This document shows positions 13,245 to 18,193 of a DNA stretch of 64,000 bases, piece after piece. Origin of the DNA: an uncultured Thermoplasmata archaeon (GTDB taxonomy: Archaea; Thermoplasmatota; Thermoplasmata; UBA10834). Position numbers and translations under genes: made by a program. Within the stretch, counting starts at the first letter, position 1. Every line of letters begins with the position of its first letter. The DNA lies in NCBI GenBank assembly GCA_963719945.1, contig CAVRDX010000001.1, positions 320,001-384,000 of the forward strand. Reading direction: 5' to 3'. Below the pieces are notes generated by a model that made no database searches, was not told the DNA's origin, and saw nothing but the letters and a program-made list of their open reading frames with translations.

Positions 13245-14002
13245 GTGTCACCAAACAAGGCGATTGTGAGAGCGCCCGGGTCGAGGTATTCGGACTGTCT
13301 GTCGTCGCATCCATTGAAGCGAACCATCGACCTGGTCAATGCACGCAATCAGCATGCTCGCTACCGTGCAACTCTCTCGGAATTGGGCATGGAAGTAATC
13401 TGTCTCGAAATGGATGACGAACATCCCGATTCTTGCTTTGTCGAAGATGTGGCAATTGTCCACAATGGCAAGGCATTGATGTGCAGGACCGCAAAAGAGA
13501 GCCGACAGGGAGAGGAAGGTCCAGTGCGGGAGACACTATCTCATCACGTGTCGATCGGATTCGCAGCAGCTCCTGCGACAATCGAGGGTGGCGACGTCGT
13601 CCATCTTGAAGACTGACTGATTTGCGGTGTCACACAGAGAACGAATGATGATGGAGCGAGACAGATGGGTGAATGGCTCGAGACCAAGGTTGATTTGGTT
13701 CGAGATCCGAAGATCATGCATCTCAAGAGTTTCGTCAGCTCCTTGGGAACGAACCAGCTTGTTGGTCGCGGAAAAATACTCTGAGCACGATGTTTTCGAC
13801 GGACTTGACTGTCCTGGTGGTACCAAACGAGGAATGGTATGGCTCAAACTTGATTGCCATCGATGATTCAGTAATCATGTCGAAAGGGTACCCACGCACC
13901 GAAGCCATTCTGAAATCAAATGGGTTCAGGGTCACAGCGTTGGATATGAGTGAATTCCCTAAATGCGACGGGGCTCTCACATGCCTATCGATCCTCTTCT
14001 AG
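13245..14002 (+). pseudogene. Dimethylarginine dimethylaminohydrolase/amidinotransferase family, interrupted
   Basis: HPDSCFVED, IEGGDV, then in-frame TGA at 13614-13616; reading through gives LICGVTQRTN...MHLKS. Two +1 shifts (about 13755 and 13810) lead to the C-terminus with KCDGALTCLS. Confidence 0.85.
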
Positions 14003-16151: not shown

Positions 16152-16799
16152 GTGAGTGCTGAGAAGATTCTGGAGCAGCTGCGCGGAGCCGTGCTGAAGT
16201 ACGATTCCGACGCAGCAGTGTCTGCTGCAAAGGCCGTCATCCACGCGAAGATGGATCCTCTGCAGGCGATTGAGAAAGGACTGGTTCCTGCAATACATGA
16301 TGTGGGTGAAAAGTTCGAGAAGATGGAGATATACCTCCCTGAGCTAATGCTCGCAGGGGACGCCATGAAGTCTGCTCTCGCCCTGCTTCTGCCGCTCGTA
16401 CCGAAGGGCGAGAAGACCTCCAAGGCAACCGTTGTTATCGGCACGGTCCAGGGGGATGTCCATGAGATTGGCAAGAACATCGTTTCTAGCATGCTTATGG
16501 CGGGTGGCTTCGAAGTCATCGACCTTGGCGTGAACGTCAAGACTTCTAGCTTCGTCGACGAGGCCAAGGCAAGAGGCGCCAAGATCATCGGCGCATCAGC
16601 CCTAATGTCCAGCACGATCGGATCGCAGAAGGATATCGTCGATTATCTGAGTGCGTCAGGGGACCGCAGAAAATTCACCGTTCTGATTGGAGGAGGCCCG
16701 ACCACTCAGGAATGGTCTGATGAGATAGGGGCCGATGGTTGGGGCAAGAATGCTGTGCATGCGGTCAAGCTTGCGACCAAAGCGGCCAAAGGGAGGTGA
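16152..16799 (+). CDS. Methyltransferase cognate corrinoid protein (MtmC-like)
   Basis: B12-binding_2 cap (VGEKFEKMEIYLPEL), GTVQGDVHEIGKNIV, SALM, GGGP. Confidence 0.93.
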   Translation: MSAEKILEQLRGAVLKYDSDAAVSAAKAVIHAKMDPLQAIEKGLVPAIHDVGEKFEKMEIYLPELMLAGDAMKSALALLLPLVPKGEKTSKATVVIGTVQGDVHEIGKNIVSSMLMAGGFEVIDLGVNVKTSSFVDEAKARGAKIIGASALMSSTIGSQKDIVDYLSASGDRRKFTVLIGGGPTTQEWSDEIGADGWGKNAVHAVKLATKAAKGR

Positions 16800-16804
16800 T
16801 TCGA

Positions 16805-18193
16805 GTGGTCCAGATACTAGACGTGATGCAGAAGGCGCTCGAGGGCAAGCCGATGAGCGAGACCGACTACCAGCTGAAATCCTTCGCGGCTAAGGTGAAT
16901 GCGAAGGTGAAGGAGTACGATATCCACTTCGACAGGAACACTCCGATACCCGACGATCCTACGCTCGCAGATGATGCATTCCAGGCTGCTGTCGACATTG
17001 TCGTCGAGGTGGGGGCATACTGCACCAATACGAACCGGGTAATATCCTATACCGAGAACGAAGTCAAAGAGGCTCTCAGGTTCGCACCGTCAGAAATAGA
17101 ATTCGGCGAGGGAAAGGATCGAAAAAAGCTACTGCCGAGGAGTGTGGGGGACAAGAACCCTCCATGGTGTCTCCTGGGTGCCGGCGGAGGCGCGTGCTCG
17201 AGCGAGCAGTCATTCCTCGCCCTTGTTGAGGGATACGCTGAGATACCCGAAGCGAATGCGATAACCACTCCAGCGCTCACAAAGGTGGGAGGAATGAGGA
17301 TCAGGCCTGCATCACCTCTCGAAGTCCTTGGAGCCCAGAGGAACGCGGTTCTGTTCAGAGAAGCCTGCAACCGTGTCGGTCGTCAGGGTATGCCCGTGAT
17401 GAACACGCTCTCCACTGCCGAGTCTGACATCGCCCTTGCCGGCGCGCTGCATCCGAAGTACGGCCTGCGTCAATCTGATGGCTACATGATCTGCTGCATG
17501 GATCCGATGAAGGTCGATTTCTCGAGGCTGAACAAGGCTACGGTGGCCCTTGGACTCGGCGGGCCTATCGGAATGTGCTTCGGCCCGATGATGGGGGGCT
17601 ATGCCGGGGGACCTGAAGGCACGGCCATATCGAACATAGCTCACCACATGATGGGGATACTGACATATCAGGCGAGCTGGCTTTTGCCATTCCCGCTTCA
17701 TCTCAGATATGTGTCAAGCAGCTGTCGGGAGCTCCTATGGTTGATCAGCCTATCTGGTCAGGCGATCAGCAGGAACACGCATCTTCTATCCGTCAATCTG
17801 AATTACACCTCTGCCGGTCCATCGACGCTGATGTGTCTGCTAGAGACTTCAGCATCGGTGACCGCTGCGGTGACTTCTGGATTGCACATCGAGTCACTGG
17901 GTGTGGCATCCAACAAGGAGGAGGACAGGACCACTCCGGTCGAGCCGCGGATATCGGCAGAGGTGGGGCACGCGGTAGCTGGTATGAGCCTGGCCGATGC
18001 GAACGAGCTGGTCAAGAAATTGGTCAGGGGATATGAGGACAAGCTTCAGACCCCTCCATTGGGGAAGATGCTCTTCGAAGCATGGGATGTAGAAAAGCGC
18101 AGACCCAGCAAGGAGTATATCGCGGTGTTGAAGGAGTATAGGAAGAAGATGAAGGGTTTGGGGATTGGAGTCAGTGGGGGTCCTTGGGTCTGA
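16805..18193 (+). CDS. Monomethylamine:corrinoid methyltransferase (MtmB) homolog without pyrrolysine
   Basis: KVKEYDIHFD...LADDAFQAA..VGAYCTNTNRVI, RVGRQGM, MGGYAGGPEG, AGPST..CLLE, TPVEPR. No in-frame TAG. RBS GGAGGTGA before GTG 16805. Confidence 0.9.
   Translation: MVQILDVMQKALEGKPMSETDYQLKSFAAKVNAKVKEYDIHFDRNTPIPDDPTLADDAFQAAVDIVVEVGAYCTNTNRVISYTENEVKEALRFAPSEIEFGEGKDRKKLLPRSVGDKNPPWCLLGAGGGACSSEQSFLALVEGYAEIPEANAITTPALTKVGGMRIRPASPLEVLGAQRNAVLFREACNRVGRQGMPVMNTLSTAESDIALAGALHPKYGLRQSDGYMICCMDPMKVDFSRLNKATVALGLGGPIGMCFGPMMGGYAGGPEGTAISNIAHHMMGILTYQASWLLPFPLHLRYVSSSCRELLWLISLSGQAISRNTHLLSVNLNYTSAGPSTLMCLLETSASVTAAVTSGLHIESLGVASNKEEDRTTPVEPRISAEVGHAVAGMSLADANELVKKLVRGYEDKLQTPPLGKMLFEAWDVEKRRPSKEYIAVLKEYRKKMKGLGIGVSGGPWV

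Follow-up and report, generated by a model that had tools for sequence, protein, structure and literature searches.

Introduction

Which methyl donor can an enzyme of the MtmB family use once pyrrolysine (Pyl), the residue that marks the canonical methanogen enzyme, has been lost? The question is raised by a gene pair in a 64,000-nucleotide (nt) stretch of DNA, here called the window, from an uncultured archaeon of the order UBA10834 within the Thermoplasmata (contig CAVRDX010000001.1, positions 320,001–384,000 of the forward strand). The pair comprises a gene for a corrinoid protein and a gene for an MtmB homologue in which methionine occupies the position of Pyl. It is read here as a substrate:corrinoid methyltransferase system for a pre-activated onium donor that would feed methyl groups into tetrahydrofolate (THF), a reading to which we assign a probability of roughly 0.5.

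Pyl-free MtmB homologues are an already recognised class (PMC13044021), and a numerous one. Among representatives clustered at 50% identity, 891 family members were found, and of the 150 best matches listed, 123 run the full length without interruption. A substrate is known for just one such homologue: MtqB of Methanococcoides methylutens Q3c, the first Pyl-free MtmB homologue to be given a function, in 2026, which transfers methyl groups from tetramethylammonium and choline to cob(I)alamin and is weak with monomethylamine; in a tree of 1,061 MtmBs the function of most Pyl-free clades is unknown (PMC13044021). Establishing the donor of the present branch would show which methylated compounds these archaea draw from the pool used by methylotrophic methanogens.

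Family, fold and selection of the methyltransferase

The methyltransferase gene lies in an open frame (16739–18193, plus strand) with no internal stop and no in-frame TAG. Its product matches the MtmB profile PF05369 with 323 bits (cut-off 25) over profile positions 1–449 of 450, so that the preliminary description, made from the letters of the window, was right to call it a full-length, TAG-free member of the family. Alignment with M. barkeri MtmB, proposed there as a check, upholds this assignment (PDB 1L2Q/1NTH, E 2e-68, residues 6–454). In the same alignment the residue written X in the solved structures, Pyl202, pairs with Met199 of the window protein, counted from the GTG at 16805, within the segment GMPV-M-NTLS; the methionine had been placed at exactly this codon. 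The predicted structure (AlphaFold2, AF2) has a mean predicted local distance difference test score (pLDDT) of 94.4 and a predicted template modelling score (pTM) of 0.94. Its best Foldseek matches are 1L2Q, 1NTH and 1TV2, with a template modelling (TM) score of 0.94 and a root-mean-square deviation of 1.4 Å over 452 columns at 33% identity. By full-length profile match and triosephosphate isomerase (TIM) barrel fold the protein is a member of the MtmB family. It is not a canonical one: there is no TAG-encoded Pyl, no Pyl system was found in the assembly, and the polar pocket residues of the canonical enzyme are replaced.

A search of 5.8 billion proteins returned more than 120 homologues at 71–95% identity, and those that carry a name come from Thermoplasmata or Thermoplasmatota metagenome-assembled genomes. 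Against same-genus orthologues, the ratio of non-synonymous to synonymous substitution rates (dN/dS) is 0.04–0.08 for the methyltransferase gene and 0.06–0.09 for the corrinoid gene, and both genes are under strong purifying selection. A chance open reading frame or a pseudogene is ruled out for the methyltransferase, because 121 homologues are at least 71% identical to it and its dN/dS is so low.

A rebuilt pocket and a cysteine triad

Residue counts refer to the 121 members of the clade to which the window protein belongs, termed type A, and residues are paired along the 1L2Q alignment. The region that holds Pyl in the M. barkeri enzyme is rebuilt almost throughout. Besides the exchange of Pyl202 for Met199, Glu205 is replaced by Leu202, His228-Glu229 by Tyr227-Met228, Ser231-Gln232 by Cys230-Cys231, Asp258-Glu259-Gln260 by Met257-Cys258-Phe259, and Gln333 by Leu332, while Tyr335 is kept as Tyr334. 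Met199, Leu202, Tyr227 and Met257 each occur in 120 of the 121 members, and Asn200, Cys230, Cys231, Met232, Cys258 and Gly260 in all of them. The Leu, Met, Cys and Leu that stand for Glu205, Glu229, Glu259 and Gln333 are flanked by the aromatic residues Tyr227, Phe259 and Tyr334, all nearly invariant. The AF2 model places these positions on barrel strands 227–230, 255–259 and 329–334, right below the modelled interface with the corrinoid protein. The predicted pocket would accordingly be described, from the alignment, as rich in sulfur and aromatic residues and as invariant within the Thermoplasmata clade.

A paralogue about 65% identical to the window protein, termed type B, occurs in many relatives. 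It keeps Met199 and carries Ala-Ser in place of Cys230-Cys231 and Asp in place of Cys258. Since type B exchanges all three cysteines together, the triad appears to be present or absent as a set, and the three occur together in no other MtmB clade sampled. What seems to be new here, as judged from these alignments, is a cysteine triad that marks a clade together with a paralogue in which the set is swapped; the two types offer a concrete structure-function contrast.

With g1 denoting the genus of the window, g2 and g3 other genera, and f1 and f2 families, type B copies were observed in g2, g3 and f2 and none in g1 (loci L045, L046, L047, L138–L149 and L151). Those in family f1 lack an adjoining corrinoid gene, and among the three copies in one f2 genome that do have one of their own, two carry Asp at position 258.

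The corrinoid partner and the predicted complex

The upstream gene encodes a protein with a helical cap (B12-binding_2) and a Rossmann domain (B12-binding). In NCBIfam it comes nearest to MtgC, MtbC and pyl_corrinoid without reaching the curated cut-off of any of them. The DxHxxG motif that holds the cobalt ligand (Asp102, His104 and Gly107) is invariant across 13 corrinoid homologues, and the corrinoid gene directly precedes the MtmB homologue at all 20 loci examined, in two families. The cognate corrinoid protein noted in the preliminary description is borne out, and with it the pairing that characterises a three-component methyltransferase system.

A model of the methyltransferase with the corrinoid protein scores 0.81, and the best control scores 0.00. 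Of 80 solved complexes 58 reach that mark, as do 2 of 110 mismatched pairs. At least 91% of contacts are common to the runs, with a partner pLDDT of at least 89. On the corrinoid side the modelled interface comprises the DxHxxG loop (100–103), residues 152–155 and 182–183, and the cap helix; on the methyltransferase side it comprises the barrel-mouth loops 203–207, 232–233, 262–269 and 300–303. The model supports an arrangement in which the corrinoid protein docks by its B12 face onto the barrel mouth, although the model's pass may owe something to a resemblance to the solved MttB-MttC and MtaBC complexes. Taken with the adjacency at 20 of 20 loci, the model and its controls favour the earlier proposal that the methyl group would pass to the adjacent corrinoid protein.

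Genome context and the likely route of the methyl group

The genome measures 1.78 Mb in 4 contigs and is 87% complete, a figure that applies to every search of it reported here; gene-content searches for the order covered 49 genomes. In this assembly PylD, PylS and tRNA-Pyl were not found, and TAG serves as an ordinary stop codon that closes about 23% of long open reading frames. A hidden Pyl system is rejected for the assembled 87% of the genome. McrA and MtrH were likewise not found. Methyltransferases of the URO-D type, to which MtbA and MtaA belong, gave zero matches in the whole assembly, which extends to the genome the statement that the window holds no such gene. RamA, also reported as missing from the window, lies outside it, at C1:732848–733624 (PF14574, 336 bits), so that a reductive activase of this type is present; it occurs in all 49 genomes of the order. 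The contention that the donor differs from that of the canonical Pyl-dependent MtmB gains support from the missing Pyl machinery together with the four pocket replacements.

Elsewhere in the genome, 100 kb from the pair, a pterin-binding methyltransferase of 297 residues resembling MeTr and MtgA is encoded at C1:237226–238116. Its best solved relatives are MeTr/AcsE methyl-THF:corrinoid methyltransferases (2YCK, E 2e-36), and it too is present in 49 of 49 genomes. At C1:~813–821 kb lies a cluster of genes for FolD, formate-THF ligase (Fhs), two HdrA-like proteins, MetV and MetF. Methyl flow to THF is most likely, because Mcr, the Pyl system, MtbA, MtaA and MtrH were not found but RamA, the MeTr/MtgA-like enzyme and the THF branch are present. 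The most economical route most likely runs from the donor to the corrinoid protein, from there to THF by way of the MeTr-like enzyme, and on into the THF branch. A second methyltransferase of such archaea has been called undescribed in earlier work (PMC11264602), and on homology the MeTr-like protein is a candidate for it that can now be named.

The genome also holds seven uninterrupted MttB homologues, two of which adjoin a further corrinoid protein that shares 45% identity with the first. In this cluster (C1:233184–238116, locus L135), outside the window, the corrinoid gene and the two Pyl-free MttB genes are divergent from that of the MeTr/AcsE-like pterin methyltransferase. Permeases of ATP-binding cassette (ABC) transporters follow the cluster, one of them with PKD domains.

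CdhC of carbon monoxide dehydrogenase/acetyl-CoA synthase (CODH/ACS) was found in 31 of the 49 genomes, same-genus relatives included, and not in this 87%-complete assembly. In one relative (G094:C12:290161–297267) it lies in an open frame of about 1,400 amino acids (aa), close to another RamA-like gene and to a second gene for a pterin-binding protein; several tblastn matches to that second pterin gene of the CODH/ACS region contain TGA codons. MetE-like methionine synthase is present in 46 of the 49 genomes, and the idea that the MtmB homologue and the corrinoid protein form a split methionine synthase is given little weight on that account.

Position in the MtmB family

The residue in the Pyl column is highly variable over the MtmB family as a whole. 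A FastTree phylogeny built from 162 sequences gives the Thermoplasmata clade a support of 1.0, and the nearest protein outside it, among the matches listed, is 41% identical to the window protein. The enclosing superclade, also with a support of 1.0, takes in proteins of Heimdall-, Thor- and Hodarchaeales (39–40% identity), Bathyarchaeia (38%), and Anaerolineales and Deltaproteobacteria (36%), as well as representatives from clusters named Bathyarchaeota, Spirochaetota and Thermoleophilia. The Pyl enzymes fall in a separate clade of 20 leaves from which the window protein is excluded.

That 20-leaf clade also includes a Pyl-free clade of Methanosarcinaceae (Methanococcoides, Methanolobus, Methanohalophilus and Methanohalobium), whose members are 25–30% identical to the window protein. 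They have Met at the Pyl column, retain the equivalent of Glu229 and lack the cysteine triad. The Pyl-free homologues of Methanococcoides include P0492 and P0489 (30% identical to the window protein) and P0529 (24%), and both kinds fall in the 20-leaf clade. M. methylutens Q3c itself has several Pyl-free mtmB copies. The Methanosarcinaceae clade fits the description of MtqB, being drawn from the same genera and branching beside the Pyl enzymes, and is a candidate for it by description only. When metagenomes were scanned with the M. methylutens homologue, its closest relatives had no adjoining corrinoid gene, and a relative at 73% identity has one downstream. The Thermoplasmata clade is separate from both groups, being about 30% identical to the Pyl enzymes and to the MtqB-like clade alike.

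Distribution and gene neighbourhoods

In a sample of 201 genomes of the class, close homologues of the window protein, at 64–95% identity and without stops, turned up in 21 of the 22 other genomes of its family and in all three of a sister family, which places the Thermoplasmata branch in 24 of 25 other sampled genomes of the order. Families of Methanomassiliicoccales have MtmB genes with one TAG that are 28–35% identical to the window protein. Four uninterrupted MtmB paralogues were also observed in Methanomassiliicoccales (P0188, P0380, P0382 and P0387), 44–59% identical to the Pyl-MtmBs of the same organisms. Their Pyl column holds Ile, Val, Lys or His, and the equivalents of Glu205 and Glu259 are retained in most; the version with Lys may be an annotation of TAG read-through.

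Beyond the corrinoid gene, the surroundings of the pair differ among genera. In g1 it is flanked by housekeeping genes (diphthine synthase and Trm5). Links to genes of methylotrophy appear in other genera. In g3, genes for an EamA transporter, two MttB proteins, the corrinoid protein and the MtmB homologue follow one another in that order on one strand. In g2 the pterin methyltransferase gene lies 8.4 kb upstream of the pair, with a PAS-GAF histidine kinase and an ABC transporter whose solute-binding protein belongs to family 5 encoded in between. The two EamA genes observed, in g3 and f2, did not group with each other. Shared neighbours were dropped as a clue to the substrate, given these differences in context among g1, g2 and g3.

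In one sister-family genome (G109:C35:11428–13714) a short archaeal MetE-like gene (Meth_synt_2) converges on the MtmB homologue, from whose end it is about 70 nt away. Within the window itself, a pseudogene related to amidinotransferases and dimethylarginine dimethylaminohydrolase (Pfam ADI/DDAH_eukar) is found at 13245–14002 on the plus strand, with an in-frame TGA at 13614–13616 and a frameshift between ~13764 and 13801. An intact counterpart of 251 aa occupies the same place in a same-genus genome (L038), at 85–88% identity over two segments, and another homologue adjoins a type B MtmB paralogue in genome G137 (L045).

Organisation of the gene pair

The two genes are co-oriented, with the corrinoid gene first (Table 1). 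The most plausible start of the methyltransferase is the GTG that has GGGAGGTGA ahead of it at 16791–16799. The overlap of this element with the stop codon of the corrinoid gene suggests translational coupling of the two. No riboswitch or other RNA family was found by Rfam across the whole window. Among sequencing data sets, none of RNA was listed as matching the stretch, and the matching DNA sets have only small fractions of its words in common with it.

Table 1. Features of the gene pair, in window coordinates.
Feature	Position	Strand	Basis or remark
Corrinoid (cobalamin-binding) protein gene, 215 aa	GTG 16152..16799, TGA stop 16797-16799	+	Pfam B12-binding_2 and B12-binding
Shine-Dalgarno-like GGAGG	16791..16799	+	Overlaps TGA of corrinoid gene; 5 nt before methyltransferase GTG; read from the sequence
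MtmB-family methyltransferase gene without Pyl, 462 aa, type A	16805..18193	+	PF05369, 1L2Q match, AF2 model
Met199 codon (ATG), position of Pyl202 in M. barkeri MtmB	17399..17401	+	1L2Q alignment
Tyr227-Met228-Ile229-Cys230-Cys231-Met232 codons, barrel strand	17483..17500	+	Met228 = Glu229 of M. barkeri MtmB
Met257-Cys258-Phe259 codons, barrel strand	17573..17581	+	Cys258 = Glu259 of M. barkeri MtmB

Proposed mechanism and alternatives

In the proposed mechanism the TIM barrel of the MtmB fold would bind a donor other than monomethylamine in the hydrophobic sulfur/aromatic pocket, at the place taken up in the methanogen enzyme by Pyl and the acidic residues that accompany it. The donor would be permanently charged and pre-activated, and as such would need no Pyl; a quaternary ammonium compound such as choline or tetramethylammonium is envisaged, possibly a sulfonium. 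The corrinoid protein in its Co(I) state would dock on the barrel mouth and take the methyl group by nucleophilic attack, and the methyl-Co(III) protein would then be unloaded onto THF by the MeTr/MtgA-like pterin methyltransferase. Methyl-THF would enter the branch of MetF/MetV-HdrA, FolD and Fhs for oxidation, or would serve acetyl-CoA synthesis in relatives that bear CODH/ACS, and RamA would re-reduce corrinoid that had become oxidised.

Several observations weigh against this reading. Glu205, Glu229, Glu259 and Gln333 are what we take to be the polar and acidic residues round the pyrroline ring of M. barkeri MtmB, and the window protein has no acidic residue at any of these four compared positions; a pocket so composed looks atypical of quaternary-amine sites. 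A metal site, or a neutral donor based on sulfur or oxygen, would be in keeping with the three invariant cysteines. The function of MtqB is not transferable to the window protein, because the two are presumed to share only about 30% identity and stand at different places in the tree. Another Pyl-free MtmB-superfamily protein is induced by dichloromethane and not by an amine (PMC9768040). Finally, the pterin methyltransferase lies 100 kb away beside an MttB cluster, and that it serves this corrinoid protein is an inference.

One alternative is a metal-assisted transfer, in which Cys230, Cys231 and Cys258 would bind zinc and a neutral S- or O-methyl compound (methanethiol, dimethylsulfide, methylthiopropionate, methanol or a methoxy compound) would be demethylated onto the corrinoid protein. 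Zinc sites of a comparable make-up are the Cys with a vicinal Cys-Cys in MetH and BHMT and the Glu/Cys/Cys of MtaB. The triad is invariant in 121 of 121 type A proteins, lies on the adjacent strands 227–230 and 255–259 at Pyl-contacting positions just below the modelled interface, and is replaced in concert by Ala, Ser and Asp in type B, with no other sampled MtmB clade having all three. Cysteines are also found in pockets that hold no metal, however; the MtqB pocket is itself described as sulfur-rich without a metal (PMC13044021), and the pair has no linked genes related to thiols or methanol. We regard zinc as a tentative alternative, on the unlikely side. It is somewhat more doubtful still that the two paralogues divide the chemistry, type A acting as a zinc-thiolate methyltransferase on the MtmB scaffold, with a neutral S- or O-methyl substrate or a thiol acceptor, and type B handling a cationic amine, both in archaea that feed THF. 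If true of type A, this would add a metal to pyrrolysine and the pre-charged donor as a third chemical solution in one family.

The same triad would suit thiolate activation in the reverse direction, with the enzyme as a methylcorrinoid:acceptor methyltransferase that passes the methyl group to a thiol or other acceptor, the corrinoid being loaded from methyl-THF or by MttB homologues. The lack of an MtbA/MtaA-type second methyltransferase in the assembly and the MetE-like gene beside the MtmB homologue in one relative could be taken in its favour, but the characterised MtmB-family members are all substrate:corrinoid (MT1) enzymes (PMC13044021), MetE-like methionine synthase is already present in 46 of 49 genomes of the order, no coenzyme M pathway is evident and Mcr was not found in the genome. 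Such a reversal is given little credence. A halomethane (chloromethane, bromomethane or dichloromethane) would react with Co(I) unactivated and would fit a fully hydrophobic pocket, uncharged as it is at the four compared positions. In 'Ca. Formimonas warabiya' growing on dichloromethane, a Pyl-free MtmB-superfamily protein is the most strongly induced (PMC9768040). No dehalogenation-related cassette is linked to the pair, though, and the MttB homologues and transporters that neighbour it in relatives point to polar, osmolyte-like substrates, which leaves a halomethane donor quite improbable. Least probable is the demethylation of monomethylamine without Pyl. Family and fold are those of the monomethylamine enzyme and MtqB shows low residual activity with this substrate (PMC13044021), but unactivated monomethylamine is a poor methyl donor (PMC9842639), and here Pyl and all four surrounding polar residues are replaced by hydrophobic or sulfur residues in a genome where no Pyl system was found.

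Comparison with known systems

The onium reading finds its nearest parallel in MtqB and MtqC, which likewise combine a Pyl-free MtmB-family enzyme with a corrinoid gene, and the pocket of MtqB is described as having many sulfur and aromatic residues (PMC13044021). In its methanogen host MtqB, however, relies on MtbA to hand methyl groups on to coenzyme M, whereas the window system is proposed to deliver them to THF in a non-methanogen. The MtqB-like clade differs further in its identity of 25–30% and its well-supported place with the Pyl enzymes; it is by way of this description-matched clade that MtqB is set apart. M. barkeri MtmB shares the Pfam family, the TIM-barrel fold and a corrinoid partner with the window protein, which differs in having Met199 for Pyl and a host in which neither Pyl machinery nor methanogenesis genes were found.

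In overall layout the proposed route resembles the glycine betaine:THF system MtgB/MtgC/MtgA of Desulfitobacterium hafniense, which has a Pyl-free MT1 enzyme, a corrinoid protein, a pterin-dependent second methyltransferase (MT2) acting on THF and RamA-type reactivation (cited in PMC13044021). The structure of MtgA (6SK4) was among the structure-search matches. MtgB differs in belonging to the MttB superfamily and not to the MtmB family, and the genes of the window genome are dispersed. The dichloromethane-induced protein of 'Ca. Formimonas warabiya', Ga0180325_111810, is a further Pyl-free member of the MtmB superfamily with an evident role beyond monomethylamine, but it is bacterial (PMC9768040).

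Comparable organisms, with a matching gene set, are the non-methanogenic Thermoplasmata of Ca. Gimiplasmatales and other orders sister to the Methanomassiliicoccales. Ca. Gimiplasmatales have mtmB, mttB and mttC with a tetrahydrofolate (H4F) methyl branch and no Mcr, and the paper describing them refers to Zinke et al. and Hu et al. 2021 for mttB, mttC and mtmB in clades sister to Methanomassiliicoccales (PMC11264602). The preprint of Zinke et al. describes Pyl-free MttB and corrinoid proteins without MtaA in the orders RBG-16-68-12 and UBA10834. Where mtmB of the sister orders is treated in this work, the gene is labelled methylamine-specific, and the missing Pyl, the active site and the subtypes are not discussed there (PMC11264602). 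Set beside these systems, the window enzyme is an uncharacterised branch of a recognised enzyme group.

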